DNA of 40,981 nucleotides. It comes from Escherichia phage J8-65. The notes beneath the pieces are model-generated. The model had not been told where the DNA came from and searched no databases. It saw only the letters and a list, made by a program, of their open reading frames with translations. A program made the translations under genes and the position numbers. This document shows positions 19,871 to 38,392 of this stretch, piece by piece (position 1 is the first letter of the stretch; every line of letters starts with the position of its first letter). The DNA is taken from sequence record NC_025445.1. One strand, 5' to 3'.

Positions 19871-20289
19871 TGAAAGTATCTGTAGTGGACAACATACATC
19901 ACACCACGATGCCAATCGACATTCGGATTGCTGTAGCCAAAGGTATACAGGAAGAACGCCAATGGTCTGATTTACCGTGGGATGTGATAGTAGACGCCAT
20001 GTATGATGCCACCGCCAACGGATGCACTGATGTGTATGTCCACGATTCTGACGGTGCTCTCATGGGCTGTGCTCATCTCGGTGAGCTGTTCGATATTCAT
20101 GTGGGGCCGTGTGCCGTTGTAATGGCTATGTATGTATGGCCCCAGTATCGCAACCGGGGAGTGACCCGTCTCATCCTCCGCGAACTCAAACGCGCTGCCC
20201 GGCAAGCTGGGTTGCGCTGGTGCGGTTACTCCCACATGGTACGTCCTTATGTTCAGGAATACCGATTCATTGATTTGGAGAAACCGTAA
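19870..20289 (+). CDS. hypothetical protein, possible GNAT-like fold (139 aa)
   Basis: VVMAMYVWPQYRNRGVTRLILREL resembles GNAT motif A region; low-GC. Confidence 0.45.
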   Translation: MKVSVVDNIHHTTMPIDIRIAVAKGIQEERQWSDLPWDVIVDAMYDATANGCTDVYVHDSDGALMGCAHLGELFDIHVGPCAVVMAMYVWPQYRNRGVTRLILRELKRAARQAGLRWCGYSHMVRPYVQEYRFIDLEKP

Positions 20290-20549
20290 TGGGTAGCGTA
20301 GGCAAAGTTTTCAAAGGCATTGGCTCTGTCTTCGGACTGGGTAGCCAAACCCCGAAGTACACCATCAAGACCGACCCGAATCAGGTTCGTGCGGAGACGA
20401 TGAACGCGAACCTGCAAGCAGATTTGTCGAACGATAACACCCCAACGATTCAGTCCGGTGGTCAGGTTAGTTCTGCCTCCGATACTCTGTCGGGCCGACG
20501 CCGCCGCACCGGAACGGGTGTAGCAAGCAACCTCGGCATTGGGAGTTAA
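20289..20549 (+). CDS. small virion protein, T7 gp6.7-like (86 aa)
   Basis: Gly/Ser-rich with basic RRRR patch, directly upstream of portal as in T7. Confidence 0.5.
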   Translation: MGSVGKVFKGIGSVFGLGSQTPKYTIKTDPNQVRAETMNANLQADLSNDNTPTIQSGGQVSSASDTLSGRRRRTGTGVASNLGIGS

Positions 20550-20552
20550 CGT

Positions 20553-22115
20553 ATGACCCAAGACGCGCAGAACGTCAGCTATGAGTCTCTGTGGCAGAAA
20601 TACCGGGACAGCAACGTTGTGACGAAGGCTCGTGAGTACAGCCGCTATACACTGGCTAAGCTGGTGAGCGAGTATGACCTGGCTGACACGGACGATATGA
20701 ACCGCCAGCAGATTACTCGTGACTATCAATCTGTCGGCGCTCTGCTCGTCAACAACCTCGTTGCTCGATTGGGCGAGTTCCTGTTCCCGGCTTCCGCTCG
20801 TTTCGTGAAGCTGAAACTTAACAAGGTGTCTGAGCAGCAGCGGCAGCAACTGTCGCAAGTCAATCAGGCACTCATCACTATTGAGAAAGCCATCGTTGAC
20901 AAAGCCAAAGAAAACGGTGGTTATGCCGACCTGCTCCAATGTATTGCCCAGCAAGCCGTGACTGGTAACGCCGCGCTGTACCGCGATATGGAAACTGGAA
21001 CGTACCGTGTGTACGGTCTGGAATCCTTCGTGGTGCAGCGCGACGGTCGTGGCGTTGTAACGGACGCAATCGTCAAGGAACGCATCCAGTGGGATGCGTT
21101 GCCTATGGAGTTCCAGAAGCAGCTCGAAGCTAAGGGCTTCCGTTGCAGCGGTAACAAACGCATTTGGCTGTACACCCGCGTCAAGCGTGTGCCGCGCCAG
21201 AACAACTTTGGCTATGAAGTGACGCAGCAGGTGGGCAACTACCAAGGCTGCGTTTATACCCCCGGTAAGGATTACTACCCTGAAAAAGTCTGCCCTTGGA
21301 TTTTCCCAGTGTGGTCTTTGAAGTCTGGCGAGCATTATGGTCGCGGGATTGTCGAAGACCACGCTGGGGATTTCGCACGTCTGTCGATGCTGAGTGAGCA
21401 CAGCGCCCTGTACATGCAAGAAGCCTTGCGCGTGCTGTGGAAGCTGACTGGCTCAGGCGGCAACGCTGACGATATCGAATCCGCAGAGACTGGTCAGGTG
21501 GTTCCGCTACAGTCCGGCACCCAACTTGAGGGGCTGGAGGTCGGGGATTACCAGAAAGTCCAACAGGCTCGTGACGAGATTAACCAGATTGTGCAGCGAC
21601 TCGCGCAGGCGTTCATGTACACTGGTGAGTTCCGTGATTCTGAACGTACCACCGCAACCGAAGTGCAGCAGGTAGCAACCAGCGCCGAACGCGGGTTGGG
21701 TGGCCCGTACTCCATGCAGGCTAAGACCCTCCAGATTCCGCTGGCGTACGTCTTGCTCGCGGAGATTGACGAGTCCACCGTACCCGATATCGTTGGCAAC
21801 ATCCTATCCCTTCAAGTCGAAGCAGGTCTGGATGCCCTCGGTCGCAGTATCGAAGCAGAGACGCTCATTCGTGCGCTCTCAGATTCGCAGGCAGCAATGG
21901 TTGCTGTCCAGAACATCAACGGCGTTGCTAACACCATCGACCCACATAAAGTCCTTGAGGTTATCTTCGCTTCCAACGGCGTCGCGCTGGATGACTATCG
22001 CAAGTCACCACAAGACTTGGCCAATGAAGGCCGTGCCATCGACAATGCAGCAGCCGCTGCCGCAGGCGTACAGCCGGGCGCAGTCGATGTAGCGCCGAAC
22101 GTCGCACAGATTTAA
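20553..22115 (+). CDS. portal (head-tail connector) protein (520 aa)
   Basis: size and position (portal-scaffold-capsid order) as T7 gp8. Confidence 0.8.
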   Translation: MTQDAQNVSYESLWQKYRDSNVVTKAREYSRYTLAKLVSEYDLADTDDMNRQQITRDYQSVGALLVNNLVARLGEFLFPASARFVKLKLNKVSEQQRQQLSQVNQALITIEKAIVDKAKENGGYADLLQCIAQQAVTGNAALYRDMETGTYRVYGLESFVVQRDGRGVVTDAIVKERIQWDALPMEFQKQLEAKGFRCSGNKRIWLYTRVKRVPRQNNFGYEVTQQVGNYQGCVYTPGKDYYPEKVCPWIFPVWSLKSGEHYGRGIVEDHAGDFARLSMLSEHSALYMQEALRVLWKLTGSGGNADDIESAETGQVVPLQSGTQLEGLEVGDYQKVQQARDEINQIVQRLAQAFMYTGEFRDSERTTATEVQQVATSAERGLGGPYSMQAKTLQIPLAYVLLAEIDESTVPDIVGNILSLQVEAGLDALGRSIEAETLIRALSDSQAAMVAVQNINGVANTIDPHKVLEVIFASNGVALDDYRKSPQDLANEGRAIDNAAAAAAGVQPGAVDVAPNVAQI

Positions 22116-22125
22116 TGGAGATTAC

Positions 22126-23346
22126 ATGTCAGGTGAATACCAACCTACTGCCGCACCCGCTCCCCAAAACGTACCCGCTGGCCCGACCTATGCTCCCTCT
22201 GGTCACAGCGGTAATGATTATGGTGGAAGCCCACAGGTGGTACAGAACCCAGCGCTTGGTCGCTTAGGTACGCCGATTGAACTGCCTCGCGGCGGCGCAA
22301 CTCCGCAGCCTCAGCAGCCTTTCGCGCAGCCGGGCCTGATTCCAAATCAGGAGTACAACCCGTATGCCAACCAGTCGCAGGGAAATCCAAGCCCTTACGC
22401 ACCCGTACCTCAGCAGAACCCGTATGGTTCTCCGCAACCGCAGTCGCCGTACGCGGCACCACCTATTCCGATTAATGGGTATCCGCAACAGGGCTACACG
22501 CCTCCGGGCCAAGCGGCTCCGGCTCAGCAGTTCCAGCAGCCTGTAGCACCGCAGCCATATGCTTTCGACCCGTACGGTCGTCAGCCGGGCCAGCCACAGC
22601 AGCAGCCTCAGCAGCCGCAGCAGCAGACTCAACCTTTCCAGCAGTTGCAGCCGCAACAGCAGCCGCCTGTCCAGAACCAGCAGCTCACTGCTGACAAGCT
22701 GGCCAAGCAGGAAGGAGGTCTAACCCCGGAGCAGGTTGCACAGATTTTCCCTGACCAAACCAGTCAGGCAGTATTCCAAGGCATGGACACCATCGCCCGT
22801 GGCCAGAACATCGACCTGCTTGCAGCGTTCGGTCAGGCTTACGAGCGACGCGACCCGACCTTGGTGAACGACCGTTACCTTGCGCAGTTCGACCCGCAGA
22901 CCGTGGCTATCCTGAAAGGACAGTTCGGTGCGCTGGTAGCCGCAGGGCAGCAGCGCGATGCGCAGATTGAGCAGCAGGTGTACCAGATGGCTGGTGGCGA
23001 GCAACGTTGGAACCTCGCAGTACAGGCATTCAACACCGCAGCAGACCCTGCAACAGTCGATGCTGTCGTAGCAGCAGTGAACTCAGGCGACCCGAATCAG
23101 GTACGTCTGGCAGTGAACACCATCCTCCAGTTCACTGGTGCCCAAGGCAATATGATTCAACGTAGTGGTCAGAGTTTGACGCCCAATGGTGGCGGCCAAG
23201 CACCTCAAGAGGTGATGACCAATGAGGCTTTCCGTCAGCATCTTGGCTGGCTTGAGCAGGCGCACCCGGTTGGTTCCCCGGAATACAACCGTCACTATCA
23301 AGAGCTGGTAGAGAAGCGTCGTCAAGCCAAGGCTATGGGCTACTAA
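22126..23346 (+). CDS. scaffolding protein with P/Q-rich low-complexity N-terminal half (406 aa)
   Basis: position between portal and capsid; N-terminal ~190 aa Pro/Gln/Tyr-rich. Confidence 0.65.
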   Translation: MSGEYQPTAAPAPQNVPAGPTYAPSGHSGNDYGGSPQVVQNPALGRLGTPIELPRGGATPQPQQPFAQPGLIPNQEYNPYANQSQGNPSPYAPVPQQNPYGSPQPQSPYAAPPIPINGYPQQGYTPPGQAAPAQQFQQPVAPQPYAFDPYGRQPGQPQQQPQQPQQQTQPFQQLQPQQQPPVQNQQLTADKLAKQEGGLTPEQVAQIFPDQTSQAVFQGMDTIARGQNIDLLAAFGQAYERRDPTLVNDRYLAQFDPQTVAILKGQFGALVAAGQQRDAQIEQQVYQMAGGEQRWNLAVQAFNTAADPATVDAVVAAVNSGDPNQVRLAVNTILQFTGAQGNMIQRSGQSLTPNGGGQAPQEVMTNEAFRQHLGWLEQAHPVGSPEYNRHYQELVEKRRQAKAMGY

Positions 23347-23369: not shown

Positions 23370-24362
23370 ATGGCAGCTAACTCCTATACCCCGAACCAGT
23401 TCCGTCCACACTGGGGTGGCGCGAACTCTGACAACGACATTCACCTTGAGGTGTATGACCGTGACGTGCAGACCCAGTTCATTTACAACTCCATCTTCCG
23501 TTCCGGTCTGACCAACTTCAAGTCTGTGGCTAACCAGTCCAACACTTGGCGTGGCGACCGCCTCGGCAGCGTGACCGTGAAAGGTCGTAAATCTGGTGAG
23601 TCTCTGGTGAACCAGCCAGTTCGCTCTGAGAAGCTGATTGTCACCGTGGATACCGTGTCTTACATTCGTATCCCGATTGACTATCAGGACGACTGGACTG
23701 CGCCGGACTTCCGTGCTGAGCTGACCCGTAACATGGGTACTTCTCAGGCGAAGGCGTTCGACCAAGCGCACGTAATTCAGCTCCAGAAGTGTGCTGACTT
23801 CGTGCCTCCGACTTCTCTGGCTGGCGCATTCAACGCTGGTATCAAAGAGAAGATTACGCTGACTGGCACCGTCGCTTCTGAGGAAGACGACGCAAGCGCA
23901 ATCGTGCATGGCCACAAGAAAGTTATCGAAGCGTTCATTCGCCGCGATGCCGACCTTGGCCGTCTGGTTACGCTGATTGACCCGGCGTGGTTCAGCATCC
24001 TGCTGGAGCACAAGAAACTGATGAACGTTGAGTTCACTGGTGGCCGTGGTGTGAACGACTTCGCAATGCGCCGCGTTGCGTACGTCAACGGTATTCGCCT
24101 GATTGAGAGCAATGCTTTCCCGCAGGCTGCAATCACCGACCACATCCTCGGTGCTGACTTCAACGTCACCGCCGACGAAATCAAGCGCAAGCTGATTGTG
24201 TTCGACCCGTCTCTGGCTCTCGTTACCGTCGAAGCCCAACCGCTGTTCAACCGCGTGTGGGATGACGAGAAAGAGATGACCAACGTTCTGGATAGCTTCC
24301 ACATGTACACCGTGGGTCAGAAGCGTCCTGACGTGGTGGGTGTCGTAACCACCGAAGCCTAA
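23370..24362 (+). CDS. major capsid protein (330 aa)
   Basis: size and position as T7 gp10; followed by a terminator-like hairpin. Confidence 0.85.
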   Translation: MAANSYTPNQFRPHWGGANSDNDIHLEVYDRDVQTQFIYNSIFRSGLTNFKSVANQSNTWRGDRLGSVTVKGRKSGESLVNQPVRSEKLIVTVDTVSYIRIPIDYQDDWTAPDFRAELTRNMGTSQAKAFDQAHVIQLQKCADFVPPTSLAGAFNAGIKEKITLTGTVASEEDDASAIVHGHKKVIEAFIRRDADLGRLVTLIDPAWFSILLEHKKLMNVEFTGGRGVNDFAMRRVAYVNGIRLIESNAFPQAAITDHILGADFNVTADEIKRKLIVFDPSLALVTVEAQPLFNRVWDDEKEMTNVLDSFHMYTVGQKRPDVVGVVTTEA

Positions 24363-24422: not shown

Positions 24423-24971
24423 GTGACTCTACTCGAAGCAGTAAACATTGTTCTTCGGGCATTGTCTGAGCACACCGTATCCTCGACTGAGATTCGAAAC
24501 CCGTCCGTCACTCTTGCCCTCGACAAGATTGCCATCGCACAGGAAGAGGTTCTCACTGACGGTTGGTGGTTCAACAACATCCGAATCACCATTCCACGCG
24601 AGTCGGATGGTCGAGTCAAATACCCCGCAGACGCACTGAGCTTCATCCCGGATGGGTTTGAGTGTATCGTGCGAGGCGGGTATCTTTACAACGCCCAATC
24701 CCAAACCTTTGTTTTTACTGAGGATGTTCCGGGATTGGTTACTTATGACCTTGAGTGGGATGACCTTCCAAGTCCAGTCCAGCGACTGGTTGCGTATCAG
24801 GCAGCCATCTCTGCGTATGCTGATGATATGGGAGACAATCCTCCGGTGTCGGTTACTGGCGGCTATGCGAACGCATTGCAACAGTGCCAGTCTATCCACA
24901 CCCGTCAACGTCGATTCAATGCTCGCCAGCGTCAGAGCTGGTGGCGATATGAGAGTGCTCGGAGAGGATAA
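24423..24971 (+). CDS. tail tubular protein A (182 aa)
   Basis: GTG start 7 nt after AGGAG; N-terminus parallels T7 gp11; position. Confidence 0.75.
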   Translation: MTLLEAVNIVLRALSEHTVSSTEIRNPSVTLALDKIAIAQEEVLTDGWWFNNIRITIPRESDGRVKYPADALSFIPDGFECIVRGGYLYNAQSQTFVFTEDVPGLVTYDLEWDDLPSPVQRLVAYQAAISAYADDMGDNPPVSVTGGYANALQQCQSIHTRQRRFNARQRQSWWRYESARRG

Positions 24972-27415
24972 TGCCAGTTTACCAAGGCTCGTATAAATCC
25001 ATCCTCGGCGGCGTAAGCCAGCAGGTCTATACTGACCGACAGCTATCGCAGGTTGAGGAACAGGTCAACATGACCTCCGATACCGTTCGTGGCCTGCGCA
25101 AGCGCCCCGGCACTCGCCTAAGTCGTGACGTAAGTTCGACCAACGCGACTGTATGGAGCCTTGGAAATTTTGGCCACCTCCGGTTCTACACCACTAACTT
25201 AGGGTGGGGGATTACCACGTTCATCGTTAACACGAAGACCGGGTACGTGACCTCCATTGTAGAGACAGAGACTGTCCAGTTCATGGGGCAGTCGAATTAT
25301 CTCATCGCAAATAACCCCGACGACATTGTATTCACGACCGTGGGCAACACCATGTACGTTGCCAACTGTTCCAAGCTGCCCGTGCTAATCGAGAACGAAA
25401 CGCGAATGAATCCGGGTCGCCGGGGTTACTATTTCGTGCTGGCTGGTTCCTATGGGAAGCAGTACACAGTGCGCGTACAGACCACGCTCGGTGCCGTGAG
25501 CGCAACGTACACGACGCCCAATGCAGACCAGACCAGTGCGTCTGACCATGCAACGCCAGAGTACATCATCAGCCAGCTCAAGTCTCAGCTCGACGCCGCT
25601 GTGGGTGGTGCTTCTGGTCTTGAGATTGTTCAGGCTGATGGTGCGTACCTGTACCTGCAATGCACTGAGGCTGCGGCAGATATGAACGTGTCAACCTCGA
25701 CAGGTTCAACGTACGCCATTGCATCCAACACCCACACTGTAGACCTGACCACAAAGCTCCCGGCGAGACTGCCTGCGGCGGCGGGTGGGTTCATCATGAC
25801 TGTGGGCGACGCCAGCTTCGCTCAATACTTCCAGTGGAGTTACAATGACTCGCGCTGGGTTGAGAAAGGTGCCTACGGTTCCCCGACCGGGATTAACCCA
25901 AGCACCATGCCGCTGGTGTTCAAGACCTCCGCTACCACGAATCAGCACACTTTCGCTCAGGGTAGCTGGCCGGGCCGCTTGGCTGGTGATGACCTGACCA
26001 ATGCCATCCCTGCATTCACCGATGCGAATGGTGTGGGTATCACTGGCTTGGCCTCGTTCCAAGGTCGCCTGATTGTATTTAGCGGCCCGTACATCACAAT
26101 GGGTTCCAGCAACAAGGACGACCGGAACAACTTCTTCCGCACCACTGTTACGCAGGTGCTGGACGATGACCGCATTGAGTTCACAGCATCCAGCTTCGCC
26201 GGGGCTTCGTTCCGGTACGGGGTGCCGTTCAACTCTGACCTGATTCTGGCCAGTGAGGAACACCAAGCTGTCATCCCCGGACGCAACCAAATCCTGACGC
26301 CGAACAACGCCACCGCCGTGTTGACCTCGACGTACCAGATGGACACCGGGGTATCGCCGACCACCTCTGGCCGCAGCCTGTATTATTCGTACCCGCGCTC
26401 GAACAGCTCGTTCTCCGTCAAGGAGATGCTGCCGTCCGGTTACACGGATTTGCAGTACGTGAGTCAGGACGTGACCGACCACCTGCCGACTTATCTGGAA
26501 GGAGCTAACAGCTACATCTCTGCCAGCACCACGAACAACATCGTCGTGTTCGGCTCGACCACTGAGAAGTCCACGCTATACGTGAACGAGTACCTCTGGT
26601 CAGGCGATGAGAAGGTGCTGTCGTCTTGGCATCGCTGGGAGCTATACGGCACCATCCACGCCGCATGGTTCGTCCGTGAGGTTCTGGTTGTGCTGGTTGA
26701 GCAGCAGGGCCACATGAACATGCTCACGCTGTCCATGCGAGATTCTCCAGACCCGACTGACCCGACGCGTTTCCTCCCGGCAACGGATTACAGCCAGCTC
26801 ATGACTGTGACCAACCCGGCGACGGACAGCTCGTACATCCAGTTCGCGGCTGACGGAATCCAGAAAGCGCTGTGGGATATCATCCAAGCCCGGTATCTGG
26901 CTGATGGCAACTGGGATTTCATGACCACGGTTGTGCCGTCCGGCCAGTACATCGGTGCCGAGGTTGGTATCAAGTCCATCGACACTGCGAACCGACGTGT
27001 GTACCTGCAACCTTCGTACGGCAGCACATCGCTGTATGTGGGCCTGCGATTCACTGCAACGTTCAGCCCTACGCCGCCGAGAATCTTCAACGGCGACGGT
27101 TCGTATATGGACGTGAATAAGATGGTCATCATGCACTACAACTTCACGTTGCGGTACACGAGCCTCTTCACCATCACGGCCAGTGACCGTGGGGCGTACT
27201 CCGCACTGAACATCATCTCCAGCCCGATTCGGTACACGAGTCAGGAGCTGGGTCTGGAGTCAGCAACTCTGGCGAAGCGTGCGCACCTCAAAGTGCGTAT
27301 GGGTCTGGAGGTTGAGTCCAGCAGCATGGTGGTCACGTCCACTACGGCAGGCGACCTGAACATTCAAGGTTTAGGTTATTACATCAAGTTCTATAACAAG
27401 GTTCGGAGAATTTAA
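24971..27415 (+). CDS. tail tubular protein B (814 aa)
   Basis: size (T7 gp12 ~794 aa) and position. Confidence 0.8.
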   Translation: MPVYQGSYKSILGGVSQQVYTDRQLSQVEEQVNMTSDTVRGLRKRPGTRLSRDVSSTNATVWSLGNFGHLRFYTTNLGWGITTFIVNTKTGYVTSIVETETVQFMGQSNYLIANNPDDIVFTTVGNTMYVANCSKLPVLIENETRMNPGRRGYYFVLAGSYGKQYTVRVQTTLGAVSATYTTPNADQTSASDHATPEYIISQLKSQLDAAVGGASGLEIVQADGAYLYLQCTEAAADMNVSTSTGSTYAIASNTHTVDLTTKLPARLPAAAGGFIMTVGDASFAQYFQWSYNDSRWVEKGAYGSPTGINPSTMPLVFKTSATTNQHTFAQGSWPGRLAGDDLTNAIPAFTDANGVGITGLASFQGRLIVFSGPYITMGSSNKDDRNNFFRTTVTQVLDDDRIEFTASSFAGASFRYGVPFNSDLILASEEHQAVIPGRNQILTPNNATAVLTSTYQMDTGVSPTTSGRSLYYSYPRSNSSFSVKEMLPSGYTDLQYVSQDVTDHLPTYLEGANSYISASTTNNIVVFGSTTEKSTLYVNEYLWSGDEKVLSSWHRWELYGTIHAAWFVREVLVVLVEQQGHMNMLTLSMRDSPDPTDPTRFLPATDYSQLMTVTNPATDSSYIQFAADGIQKALWDIIQARYLADGNWDFMTTVVPSGQYIGAEVGIKSIDTANRRVYLQPSYGSTSLYVGLRFTATFSPTPPRIFNGDGSYMDVNKMVIMHYNFTLRYTSLFTITASDRGAYSALNIISSPIRYTSQELGLESATLAKRAHLKVRMGLEVESSSMVVTSTTAGDLNIQGLGYYIKFYNKVRRI

Positions 27416-36341: not shown

Positions 36342-36632
36342 ATGGCATCCGTGAATAAGCAGCTCGATGGGCTGCACCGGATGCTGGTTGAGTATCTGAC
36401 CACTCGGCTGTCTGAGTGCATGAAGCCCGGTAACGAGCCAATGCCAGCAGCCGAGCTGTCGGTACTTCGCCAGTTCCTGAAAGACAATGGCATCCAAGCA
36501 GATGCTGACCACGCCGACGACCTGCTGGCGCTGCAAGAGCAGCTCAACAAAGAGAAGTCGGATACGGAGCGGAAGTCCATCATGGACTCTGCCATCAAAG
36601 CAATTGCAGAAGATAGCGGGATGATGCACTAA
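36342..36632 (+). CDS. terminase small subunit (96 aa)
   Basis: size and position as T7 gp18; AAGGAG RBS. Confidence 0.7.
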   Translation: MASVNKQLDGLHRMLVEYLTTRLSECMKPGNEPMPAAELSVLRQFLKDNGIQADADHADDLLALQEQLNKEKSDTERKSIMDSAIKAIAEDSGMMH

Positions 36633-38392
36633 TGGATTTACAACGCCGCATGGTGATGGCAGGAATCGTTCGCGCACACTACGAGAACAACTTCCCGCTG
36701 TTCCTGCATGACTACTTCGCATGGCTGGGCTTTGACCTCACTGAAATGCAGCTCGATATTGGCCGCTACATGGCCGACCGGACGCTCAAGAACAAGTGCG
36801 TCATGGCTCAGCGCGGTGAGGCCAAGTCCACCATCGGCATTGCCCGTGCCCTGTATGAGTTCGTCCAGATGCCTAACGCCACCGTGCTGCTGGTATCTGG
36901 TTCTGACGACTATGCGGGTACGCTCTCGCACGCCATCGTATCTGCCATTATGCAATGGGACAGGTTGGAATGGCTGCGCCCTGAAACTCGCGCTGGCGCA
37001 CGTACCTCTTATACAGACGGTTTCGATGTACACCACGCATTTCGTATTCCTGATAAACAGCCCTCTGTCAAAGCGGTCGGTATCTTCGGCCAGTTGCAGG
37101 GGAACCACGTATCGCTGTTGATTGCCGATGACGTGGAGACTACCAGTAACGGTAGCTCTCCTGCCAACCGCGCCCGTATCAACACCCTGACCAAAGAGTT
37201 CGCGGCTATCGCCAACGACGGCGCAGAGATTCTGTACCTCGGCACGCCGCAGACTCAGGATTCCATCTACAACACGCTCCCGCAGCGTGGCTTCGACGTT
37301 CGCATCTGGCCCGGTCGTTTCCCAACGGTTGAGGAAGAAGAACGCTACGGCGGCTGTCTGGCCCCGTGGATTAAGCAGAAGATGGATGGCCACCCTGAAC
37401 TGCGTACTGGTTACGGTATCCTTGGGAACCGTGGTGCGCAGACTGACCCTCAGCGTTACTCCGAAGAGAAGCAGCTACAGAACGAACGAGACTACCAGCA
37501 GGCAGGCTTCCAGCTACAGTTCATGCTGGACACGTCGCTGTCAGATGCACTGAAACAGACTCTGCATATCCGGGATGTTATCTTCTTCCACGGCTCGCCG
37601 CAGTCTGCACCGGAGTATCTGCACTGGTCGAATCATTCGCGTCACTTGGCCGAGCTGCCAATGGACTTCCCACTCGCTCGCGCCCAGCTCTATCTGGCCG
37701 CTGACTTCTCTGAGACGTATGTACCATTCACGAATACCAAGGCGTTTCTTGACCCTGCTGGTGGTGGGTCGGACGAATCCGTTCTCTTCGCCACAGCTTC
37801 TATCGGCCCGTTTATCCACGTCATCGGTATGCACGTCTACCACGGCGGCCAGACGGAAGAGAACATCAAGGCGGCGGTAGAGTGGTGCCACGAGCTGGGT
37901 GTCCAGCACATCACCATTGAGGACAACATGGGCCACGGTGCCGTGACCAACATGTACCGTGGTGAGATTAAGCGTCAAGGACTGACAATCGGCTGTGAGG
38001 GTATTTACTCCAGCGGCCAGAAAGAAGTGCGTATCATCAATCGGTTGAGTCCTATCCTCCAGCGCCACCGCGTGGTAATCCACTGGTCGGTTGTTGAGGA
38101 AGACCTGCGCCTGTGCCGGGCCATGAACAACGGTGGCCGGGAATATAGCCTGTTCTGGCAGATGCAGAACTTGACGCAGGACAAAGGCTCCATTCCGCAC
38201 GATGACCGCATCGAAACCCTATCCGCTGCCGTGTATCTCCACGCCGAGGTACTCCAGCAAGACGAACATGAAGAGGCCCAAAAGCGTGAAGTGGCCGCCG
38301 CTCGTGAGTTTGTTGCCAACCCAATGGGGTACGACGACTCGAAGTGGCGCAGTCATAAGCGTGTCCGTGGCACTCGTCGGAGAATCCGCTAA
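36632..38392 (+). CDS. terminase large subunit (586 aa)
   Basis: same length as T7 gp19; ATPase-like N-terminus and DPAGGGSDES nuclease-like motif. Confidence 0.85.
   Translation: MDLQRRMVMAGIVRAHYENNFPLFLHDYFAWLGFDLTEMQLDIGRYMADRTLKNKCVMAQRGEAKSTIGIARALYEFVQMPNATVLLVSGSDDYAGTLSHAIVSAIMQWDRLEWLRPETRAGARTSYTDGFDVHHAFRIPDKQPSVKAVGIFGQLQGNHVSLLIADDVETTSNGSSPANRARINTLTKEFAAIANDGAEILYLGTPQTQDSIYNTLPQRGFDVRIWPGRFPTVEEEERYGGCLAPWIKQKMDGHPELRTGYGILGNRGAQTDPQRYSEEKQLQNERDYQQAGFQLQFMLDTSLSDALKQTLHIRDVIFFHGSPQSAPEYLHWSNHSRHLAELPMDFPLARAQLYLAADFSETYVPFTNTKAFLDPAGGGSDESVLFATASIGPFIHVIGMHVYHGGQTEENIKAAVEWCHELGVQHITIEDNMGHGAVTNMYRGEIKRQGLTIGCEGIYSSGQKEVRIINRLSPILQRHRVVIHWSVVEEDLRLCRAMNNGGREYSLFWQMQNLTQDKGSIPHDDRIETLSAAVYLHAEVLQQDEHEEAQKREVAAAREFVANPMGYDDSKWRSHKRVRGTRRRIR

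Follow-up and report, generated by a model that had tools for sequence, protein, structure and literature searches.

The window analysed here is the whole 40,981-nucleotide (nt) stretch of Escherichia phage J8-65 (NC_025445.1). The subject of this study is its head scaffolding protein gene, together with a candidate second open reading frame (ORF) that overlaps the first codons of that gene in the +1 frame. J8-65 is a Bonnellvirus (Autographiviridae). Its segment 20500-24400 is 98.2% identical to Escherichia phage smaasur and 84-87% identical to approximately 16 other phages of Escherichia, Enterobacter, Cronobacter, Kosakonia and Pantoea. The scaffold gene has the portal gene (20553..22115, PF12236) as its upstream neighbour and the major capsid gene (23370..24362, phrog_267) downstream, a gene order that is also found in LIMEzero, LKD16, Drulisvirus, Kotilavirus and T7. 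The ORF matches the 'head scaffolding protein' profile phrog_36307 over its full length (E=1.6e-241, residues 1-406 on profile positions 1-417 of 417), and the broader scaffold family phrog_1018 over residues 142-405 only (E=2.6e-15). The smaasur orthologue is annotated as a scaffolding protein, and a Foldseek search of the predicted viral structures in BFVD matched Autographiviridae-annotated scaffolds with E-values down to 7e-27. The full-length profile match, the portal and capsid neighbours and the BFVD matches confirm the scaffold identity that was proposed in the initial annotation, and the ORF is a member of the Autographiviridae head scaffolding family (PHROG 36307/1018). Sequence and fold searches of the PDB with the scaffold matched nothing specific, and the gene goes unmentioned in the Bonnellvirus papers that were consulted. 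The features of the locus are given below in window coordinates.

22126..23346, plus strand: head scaffolding protein gene, 406 amino acids (aa) plus stop, identified from the ORF, the PHROG match and its position
22117..22120, plus strand: Shine-Dalgarno sequence GGAG, read in the sequence and kept in all relatives
22132..22254, plus strand: scaffold codons 3-43, a P/A/G/S-rich leader and dual-constraint block with near-zero synonymous variation
22133..22267, plus strand: small ORF in +1 relative to the scaffold frame, a candidate overprinted gene encoding 44 aa from the GTG at 22133 (VNTNLLPHPLPKTYPLARPMLPLVTAVMIMVEAHRWYRTQRLVA, then stop)
22234..22287, plus strand: conserved short linear motif QVVQNPALGRLGTPIELP, residues 37-54, from the family alignment
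22291..22695, plus strand: P/Q/Tyr-rich region, residues 56-190, predicted to be intrinsically disordered from its composition, low model confidence and family motifs
22573..22680, plus strand: poly-Q/P tract, residues ~150-185, the only indel-prone segment, with a weak CAG repeat inside
22717..23145, plus strand: predicted helical core domain, residues ~198-340, from AlphaFold2 (AF2) helices with a predicted local distance difference test score (pLDDT) of 70-87
23221..23334, plus strand: predicted C-terminal helix-turn-helix, residues 366-403, with a basic end (...VEKRRQAKAMGY), from AF2

The scaffold had been described as having a Pro/Gln/Tyr-rich N-terminus of ~190 residues, disordered and prion-like in composition, followed by a helical C-terminal half. 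Composition and AF2 modelling both bear this out. Residues 1-192 comprise 22.4% Gln, 22.4% Pro, 9.4% Gly, 9.4% Ala, 6.2% Tyr and 5.2% Asn, with 10 charged residues, and the string originally quoted as typical, QPQQQPQQPQQQTQPFQQLQPQQQPP, lies at residues ~156-181. For the N-half as a whole, Pro and Gln together make up 45% and charged residues 4.7%, while the 16 aromatic residues (~8%) are placed with a median spacing of 10. The N-half is not uniform, as residues 61-192 contain 29.5% Gln and 24.2% Pro, whereas residues 1-60 are P/G/A-rich with just 6.7% Gln. In 100-aa windows the combined Pro and Gln content of the N-half reaches 58%, compared to at most 20% elsewhere in the J8-65 predicted proteome, for which the means are 4.3% Pro and 4.9% Gln. 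An AF2 model generated with a 19-sequence family alignment gave residues 1-197 no secondary structure and a pLDDT below 50, which is a proxy for disorder only. The one N-half segment to which prediction assigned secondary structure is QVVQNPALGRLGTPIELP. Within residues 56-190 we see recurring motifs of the types NPY[AG], SP[YF]AAPP, PPGQAAP and [DN]PYG. AF2 helices cover residues 201-341, and this helical core is the only part of the protein that can be aligned to phiKMV-type scaffolds, to phrog_1018 and, weakly, to T7 gp9. A Gly-rich flexible linker (residues ~340-361, pLDDT <50) leads into the helix-turn-helix, which is formed by helices at 366-379 and 385-403 (pLDDT 77-81). Residues Y387, Y391, L394, R398, K402 and G405 are invariant in the family alignment.

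The same description had set the Pro/Gln (PQ) extension against T7-type scaffolds, which it took to be normally compact. The premise is wrong, because T7 gp9 and the phiKMV-type scaffolds have long low-complexity N-halves (~130 residues in both T7 gp9 and LKD16 gp31); scaffolds of Drulisvirus and Kotilavirus have low-complexity N-termini of ~90 residues. The PQ-rich N-half is instead an ordinary feature of its scaffold family, an outcome that the description had itself named as counting against its reading. It is present at full length in approximately 18 Bonnellvirus-type phage records, and the 15 Bonnellvirus scaffold genes that we aligned to assess indels and selection encode proteins of 406-411 aa with an N-half that is alignable throughout. 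A protein search added 12 more lineages (49-71% identity, 374-406 aa), all of which have a P/Q/aromatic N-half of 160-195 residues. As for length, scaffolds of the PQ family are indeed long (the BFVD matches are mostly 237-317 aa), but J8-65 is not exceptional among its relatives. Across 18 family members the Pro content is 18-25%, the Gln content 18-37% and the content of charged residues 0.5-5.6%, with the aromatics kept near constant at 7.4-8.9% (13-17 residues, median spacing ~10, with a range of 6-10 across members). What is distinctive in the PQ family is the combination of length and an uncharged P/Q/aromatic chemistry.

Several motifs are common to the family, namely VVxNPALG, NPY[AG], QSP[YF]AAPP, PPGQAAP and NPAYQFNPYG. 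Among 19 family members, four residues of VVxNPALG never vary (N41, P42, A43 and G45), and conservation within QVVQNPALGRLGTPIELP is at least 90% at V39, L44 and P54. The QVVQNPALGRLGTPIELP motif is also found in LIMEzero and in lineage P0016, both of which lack the +1 ORF. Counterparts of VVQNPALG can be seen as VQVMPNPV near the N-terminus of LKD16 gp31 and as a weaker PIQNPARG in a distant relative (P0019), and this suggests a short linear motif that is common well beyond the PQ-rich family. The ratio dN/dS is 0.2-0.35 for the N-half and 0.08-0.09 for the C-half, with values of 0.15-0.55 for residues 56-190. As these are well below 1, both halves of the scaffold are under purifying selection.

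The first ~43 codons of the scaffold gene behave differently from the rest. Across 15 Bonnellvirus genomes, polymorphism affects 3 of the 33 amino-acid-invariant degenerate codons within codons 3-43, compared to 173 of the 255 such codons elsewhere in the gene (binomial P=3e-12). Variable nucleotides fall at codon positions 1, 2 and 3 in the ratio 5/5/4 within this block, compared to 81/67/254 elsewhere in the gene, and residue replacements in the scaffold within or near the block are at codons 2, 5, 11, 23, 28 and 30. In the nucleotide alignment, wobble variation runs through the 3' end of the portal gene, gives way to near-invariance from ~22132 to ~22257, and appears again from codon 44, and in every clade the point at which it resumes coincides with the stop codon of the +1 ORF. 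The variable sites of the block are third positions in the +1 frame (M/I/I, T/T and V/V/V), yet they alter the scaffold (A/T/S, S/G and N/H).

Raw nucleotide conservation was set aside as evidence for an ORF. Approximately 3% of 120-nt windows genome-wide are equally conserved, and we therefore switched to synonymous-site and codon-position statistics. Divergence was partitioned in the style of OLGenie, where dSN is the divergence that is synonymous for the scaffold and nonsynonymous in the +1 frame. Within Bonnellvirus, dSN is 0.043 in the overlap versus 0.36-0.37 in three control regions; with the deep lineages added, the values are 0.32 and 0.66-0.72, respectively. The ratio dNN/dSN is ~0.7 in the overlap (not significant) and 0.11-0.46 in the controls (P<0.001). 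If the control dSN is taken as neutral, both frames are under constraint, with values of ~0.12 for the +1 frame and ~0.19 for the scaffold frame. A genome-wide scan of J8-65 against three other Bonnellvirus genomes, covering 8,618 forty-codon windows, ranked the block within the highest 0.37% by synonymous identity and within the bottom 0.1% by the share of changes at third positions. Other conserved blocks, in the capsid, portal and terminase genes, have few changes and nearly all of these are at position 3, with variable sites of 0/0/5 and 1/0/5 in the capsid and portal blocks. An internal positive control, the wrong-frame ORF 24652..24996, gave a similarly aberrant codon-position pattern of 4/17/1. 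This control overlaps the tail tubular protein A gene (24423-24971), which starts with GTG, so that an ORF caller limited to ATG picks the overlapping wrong-frame ORF.

Beyond the genus, the +1 ORF and its start codon are retained in 10 of 12 deep lineages, the exceptions being LIMEzero/P0012 and P0016. As the lineages without it are nested in the tree, the ORF would be ancestral and would have been lost at least twice. In carriers an ATG, GTG or TTG is found 5-8 nt past the scaffold start (at +5 or +8), and this start is kept through five different scaffold dipeptides (SG, FG, SD, FD and SY), while the +1 stop falls at the VVxNPALG codons. The predicted peptides follow one plan, with N.NL, a Pro-rich stretch, a basic residue, a hydrophobic run of 8-15 residues and a basic tail. 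Compared to a null model of synonymous recoding, the hydrophobic peak gave P=0.001-0.14 in the 10 carriers (P≤0.011 in 7) and P=0.35-0.43 in the 2 non-carriers, and T is enriched at third positions in the block. Similarity of the +1 peptide between deep lineages gave z=3.5-5.6, against a mean of 0.15-1.0 and a maximum of 2.6 in control windows. Substitutions between J8-65 and lineage P0006 are conservative in the +1 frame (K/R, Y/F, V/M and V/L). An AF2 model of the 44-aa peptide comprises an extended Pro-rich N-terminus and one helix at residues 20-43, with a pLDDT of 91-95.

Some other coding arrangements at the locus were considered and discarded. The ATG at 22115 was rejected as a +1 start, being TTG in half of the genus and followed by TGA in Lidtsur. 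Read-through or frameshifting from the portal gene into the +1 ORF was also rejected. Clades differ by 2 nt in the interval from the portal stop to the ribosome-binding site, and this indel alters the frame relation of the portal gene and the +1 ORF, so there is no conserved link between them. Further alternative-frame ORFs in the CAG-rich part (22364..22546 and 22559..22723 on the plus strand, 22264..22656 and 22145..22462 on the minus strand) were dismissed because no frame of CAG/CCG-rich DNA contains stops and synonymous sites vary normally in that part. As an observation on the junction itself, the indel (TAA--TGGAG versus TAATTTGGAG, within 22113-22125, from the portal stop to the scaffold ATG) splits two Bonnellvirus clades and decides whether the portal and scaffold genes share one frame. 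The ATG at 22115, which overlaps the portal stop in J8-65, reads TTG in the other Bonnellvirus clade.

We favour a two-layer account of the locus, to which we assign a probability of roughly 60%: a genuine scaffold with a disordered arm, and a candidate second gene laid over its first ~43 codons. The scaffold identity of the gene and the conservation of, and selection on, its disordered N-half are direct observations. The second constraint on the first ~43 codons is likewise observed, and the +1 ORF is the best explanation for it; the in-silico case is strong, and we infer that the ORF is translated. Somewhat better than even odds can be given to a fuller reading, in which this is an ancient overprinted gene of Bonnellvirus-type phages that uses the scaffold ribosome-binding site and has a role either as head assembly begins, where it might tether or chaperone a portal-scaffold initiation complex at the membrane, or in infection timing. 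A membrane or portal-initiation role for the peptide is speculation, suggested by the gene position and by the reported assembly of SPP1 procapsid precursors at the membrane.

In the favoured account, translation in the +1 frame would start from a GTG, TTG or ATG 5-8 nt past the scaffold ATG, using the same ribosome-binding site and at a low ratio; the GGAG lies 5 nt from the scaffold ATG and 12 nt from the +1 GTG. The product would be ~27-45 residues long, Pro-rich at its N-terminus and continuing into a single hydrophobic helix that has a basic end. A hydrophobic +1 frame would also impose the composition of the scaffold leader, as the xGT, xCT and xAT codons it calls for encode G, S, A, P, N, D, Y and H. 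Residues ~37-190 form an ancient, selectively maintained disordered arm that all Bonnellvirus/Waewaevirus-type scaffolds have in common. By analogy with P22, the C-terminal helical domain and basic helix-turn-helix most likely bind the capsid protein, and the neutral P/Q arms would project into the procapsid lumen. There, weak multivalent contacts through aromatics and motifs may concentrate the scaffold into a condensate-like or gel-like core, with VVxNPALG as the best candidate for a specific contact. Phase-separated assembly, as originally suggested for this protein, would be compatible with the composition, given the evenly spaced aromatics and low charge. The arms could help nucleation at the portal, fill procapsid space and perhaps engage portal or core proteins, and a flexible, protease-independent arm would leave through capsid openings upon DNA entry. 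As the arm is uncharged, expulsion could not use the charge repulsion from DNA that has been proposed for the acidic N-terminus of P22 and, by composition, for that of T7, so flexibility alone would have to permit exit.

A number of results weigh against this two-layer account. For the overlapping gene, composition fully accounts for the +1 frame being open (P=0.2-1.0 against the recoding null), and we dropped openness as support after that test. The ratio dNN/dNS is no more than suggestive at 0.42 (P=0.06) and 0.80 (P=0.11), and a control region is similar at 0.61-0.72. Other hyper-conserved blocks occur in the genome. Between lineages P0007 and P0008, changes that are synonymous for the scaffold alter the +1 peptide radically (L to R or the reverse), which indicates a looser constraint. 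The +1 start is weak (GTG or TTG) in most lineages and 12 nt from the Shine-Dalgarno sequence in J8-65, and the hydrophobic run of 8-15 residues is short for a transmembrane segment. No homologue of the peptide was found among 5.8 billion proteins, PHROGs and Pfam, an absence that is expected because the ORF is not called in annotations. With regard to the arm, at least the first ~26 residues are dispensable for scaffolding since LIMEzero lacks them, the evidence for disorder consists of proxies (AF2 and composition), and ~23% proline disfavours ordered or amyloid-like self-association.

Among the alternatives, it is possible though doubtful that the arm is a pure entropic spacer or size-determining 'bristle', carrying motifs for portal or core proteins and showing no self-association. 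Against this reading, a constant content of evenly spaced aromatics in a low-charge, Gln-rich context is, in sticker-spacer models, typical of self-associating low-complexity domains. The spacer reading does draw strength from the proline content of 18-25%, which favours extended, non-sticky chains, from discrete motifs such as VVxNPALG being better conserved than bulk composition, and from P22, where the disordered N-terminus stays mobile inside procapsids.

Turning to the overlap, we consider it unlikely that 22132-22254 is a nucleic-acid element, such as an mRNA feature tuning scaffold translation through an unstructured 5' region, a processing site or a DNA-level signal, with the +1 ORF as a compositional by-product. 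The composition-driven openness of the frame, the non-significant dNN/dNS and the lack of a peptide homologue would all fit such an element, as would the position of the block right past the scaffold start codon, where translation-initiation constraints act. The RNA of the block also folds less stably than shuffled sequences (z=+1.47), and this weakness may itself be selected. On the other hand, the block holds no stable or conserved structure and no promoter-like or terminator-like site, and the only Rfam matches, isrG and IRES_Bip, score far under the gathering cut-offs and map to the CAG tract, on its minus strand; with a fold weaker than shuffles and no such support, an RNA element was rejected. 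Avoidance of 5' structure usually extends over ~10-15 codons, whereas the block spans 43. Constraint that stops at the +1 stop codon in every clade, and a start kept through five dipeptides, argue further against a nucleic-acid element. So do the third-position T and the hydrophobic run, which persist despite nucleotide divergence, and the conservative nature of the +1 replacements.

It is very improbable that the PQ half is non-functional filler which slippage on CAG/CCG-rich DNA both generates and maintains and which disorder makes tolerable. The initial annotation had noted NPY repeats and had suggested slippage on cagcag repeats as a possible origin of the extension. Both kinds of repeat exist, but NPY occurs only twice (NP[YFWA] gives 3 matches counting NPA, alongside the related SPY and DPY), and the CAG repeat is weak. 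Tandem Repeats Finder (TRF) reported one 30-nt CAG array at 22597-22626, with 10 imperfect copies and 77% matches, within arrays that span 22582-22631, and no tandem repeat over the rest of the PQ region. The poly-Q/P tract is annotated as a repeat_region in the usur and forsur records, and Gln content varies from 18 to 37% across the family. Of the 14 indel columns among Bonnellvirus scaffold genes, 12 map to residues ~150-185, all in frame, and close relatives differ in length by 1-5 codons. These small indels are the part of the slippage idea that stands. Slippage tunes only this ~35-residue tract and is not the origin of the conserved region. The imperfect array is 30-45 nt long, and the other ~150 residues are non-repetitive and alignable, with motifs shared between lineages that are ~50% identical. 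The dN/dS of 0.2-0.35 and the constancy of aromatic number (13-17), aromatic spacing and near-zero charge also speak against filler. Capture of the PQ region from a host gene was considered too, following a suspected likeness to the E. coli FtsK linker, and rejected when a distant-mode blastn search with 22290-22700 found no match in 5,426 E. coli genomes.

We place equally little weight on a recent recombinational sweep through the genus as the cause of the near-identity of codons 3-43. Scaffold genes of Bonnellvirus are visibly mosaic, and ~3% of 120-nt windows are as conserved as the block. However, the block contains clade-specific differences (5/5/4) that are not biased to third positions, whereas neutral drift after a sweep would give mostly third-position changes, as in the capsid and portal blocks. 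Low synonymous divergence and raised +1 similarity also persist far outside the genus. The mosaic structure can be seen in the heads of the proteins, MSGEY or MFGES, and in residues ~130-150, which read AQQFQQPVAPQPYAFDPYG or AQQPGLAPNNPAYGFNPYG; as the two assort independently, there has been recombination within the scaffold gene.

It is barely credible that an annotation or assembly error produced the long ORF, whether through fusion of two genes or because the true scaffold has an internal start as in the RZ4 record: phrog_1018 and the phiKMV-type scaffolds do align only from residues ~142-228 onward, but every genome has the ORF unbroken, the GGAG-ATG is conserved, the profile match is full-length, both halves are under purifying selection (the N-half in the scaffold frame), and independent isolate and metagenome assemblies agree. 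In the Cronobacter phage RZ4 record (L015, 463-1296), the scaffold coding sequence begins at an internal Met, which leaves out the first 134 codons and gives a product of 277 aa. Only three genomes have this Met, so the short form is an apparent mis-annotation resulting from the low-complexity 5' half.

A close relative outside the genus is ORF39 of the Pantoea phage LIMEzero (Waewaevirus/Bonnellvirus PHROG 36307), a clear homologue in the same gene position with a C-half that is 73% identical. Its N-half is likewise rich in Pro, Gln and aromatics, with VVQNPALG, NPYG, SPFAAPP, PPGQAAP and FNPY, and differs in its higher Gln content (37%) and in the absence of scaffold residues ~2-27 and of the +1 ORF. 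No functional work on the N-half of a LIMEzero-type scaffold was found in the searched literature. The phiKMV-type scaffolds (LKD16 gp31 and Ar-KM gp36) share the gene position and a homologous helical C-half at ~29% identity. LKD16 gp31, with 327 aa, has a P/Q/V/A-rich N-terminus of ~130 residues in which VQVMPNPV resembles VVQNPALG. These proteins differ from the J8-65 scaffold in being shorter, with a P/V/A-rich N-half that has few aromatics and less Gln, and they lack a +1 ORF, as the frame closes after 19 codons. Ar-KM gp36 has been detected by mass spectrometry in virion preparations but is invisible in cryo-electron microscopy and poorly modelled by AlphaFold.

T7 gp9 occupies the same gene position and follows a similar plan, with a low-complexity N-half and then a helical C-half. 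At 307 aa it is shorter by 100 residues, and its first 130 residues are 30% Asp/Glu and not P/Q-rich. The helical core of the J8-65 scaffold matches T7 gp9 weakly by hhalign (E=7e-4, probability 26%), including an AGGxxR[WF] motif, and residues 154-335 match phrog_1052 ('head assembly', the T7 gp9 family) with E=1e-6. Homology to T7 gp9 is only marginally detectable.

For the P22 scaffold there is no protease involved. Its gp8 binds coat through a C-terminal helix-turn-helix, and its disordered N-terminus is mobile in the procapsid; the disordered part is ~40 residues long and negatively charged, and release via DNA repulsion has been proposed. The J8-65 scaffold would resemble P22 gp8 and T7 gp9 in how it works but is not demonstrably a member of either family, and it differs from P22 gp8 in having an arm of ~190 residues that is nearly neutral. 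There is no sequence or fold match between P22 gp8 and the J8-65 scaffold.

In composition alone, the J8-65 N-half is similar to FUS-type prion-like domains and to cereal prolamin repeats, which share its Q/P/G/A spacers, regularly spaced aromatics, very low charge and strings such as PQQPF. Neither is homologous to it, and its proline content far exceeds that of typical prion-like domains. The literature that was searched contains no account of a PQ-type phage scaffold undergoing phase separation.

As for the candidate +1 ORF, small proteins with a hydrophobic helix that are nested in a shifted frame are known from phiX174 and lambda. The D protein of phiX174 is an external scaffold, and lambda Rz1 is nested in Rz. 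The lysis gene E of phiX174 lies entirely inside gene D. Neither case is homologous to the +1 ORF, phiX174 is a single-stranded DNA microvirus, and the +1 ORF is at the extreme 5' end of its host gene, with an apparently shared ribosome-binding site. A lysis role is not implied for the +1 ORF, because Bonnellvirus annotations already place an endolysin and an Rz-like spanin at other loci.

Scaffolds are central to capsid assembly, but their disordered parts have been little studied outside P22. The long, uncharged, aromatic-studded P/Q arm offers a natural contrast to the acidic tails of P22 and T7, and raises the questions of whether scaffold cores can be condensate-like phases and how a scaffold exits without charge repulsion from DNA. 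The PQ half is chemically distinctive and unstudied, and the candidate overprinted gene is the part most worth follow-up. If real, it would be a hidden gene in therapeutically relevant Autographiviridae with E. coli, Enterobacter, Cronobacter, Kosakonia and Pantoea hosts, of a kind that standard annotation overlooks, and a tailed-phage counterpart of phiX174 E within D. The first ~40 low-complexity residues of the scaffold would then be a footprint of dual coding. Where the 5' end of the scaffold gene is recoded or truncated, 'silent' changes would not be silent.

Some further conserved stretches and neighbouring genes in the window can be noted. Near the start of the terminase large-subunit gene (36632..38392), the 80 nt at 36677-36756 are the longest perfect identity shared with Lidtsur, altidsur and Kc261; synonymous identity there is 0.95, and just 2 sites vary across 40 codons. 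A further cis-acting or dual-coding element may lie here, where TerS and TerL meet. An early SAMase-like gene (1468-1857) has a synonymous identity of 0.80, against a genome mean of 0.44 over four Bonnellvirus genomes, and a 57-nt perfect run (1407-1463) lies just upstream of it. Directly upstream of the portal gene, 20289-20549 encodes an 86-aa 'virion structural protein' (phrog_35536). It shares its gene position, the only property compared, with gp34 of the phiKMV-like phage Ar-KM, which a 2026 preprint calls an ejectosome assembly factor comparable to T7 gp7.3.

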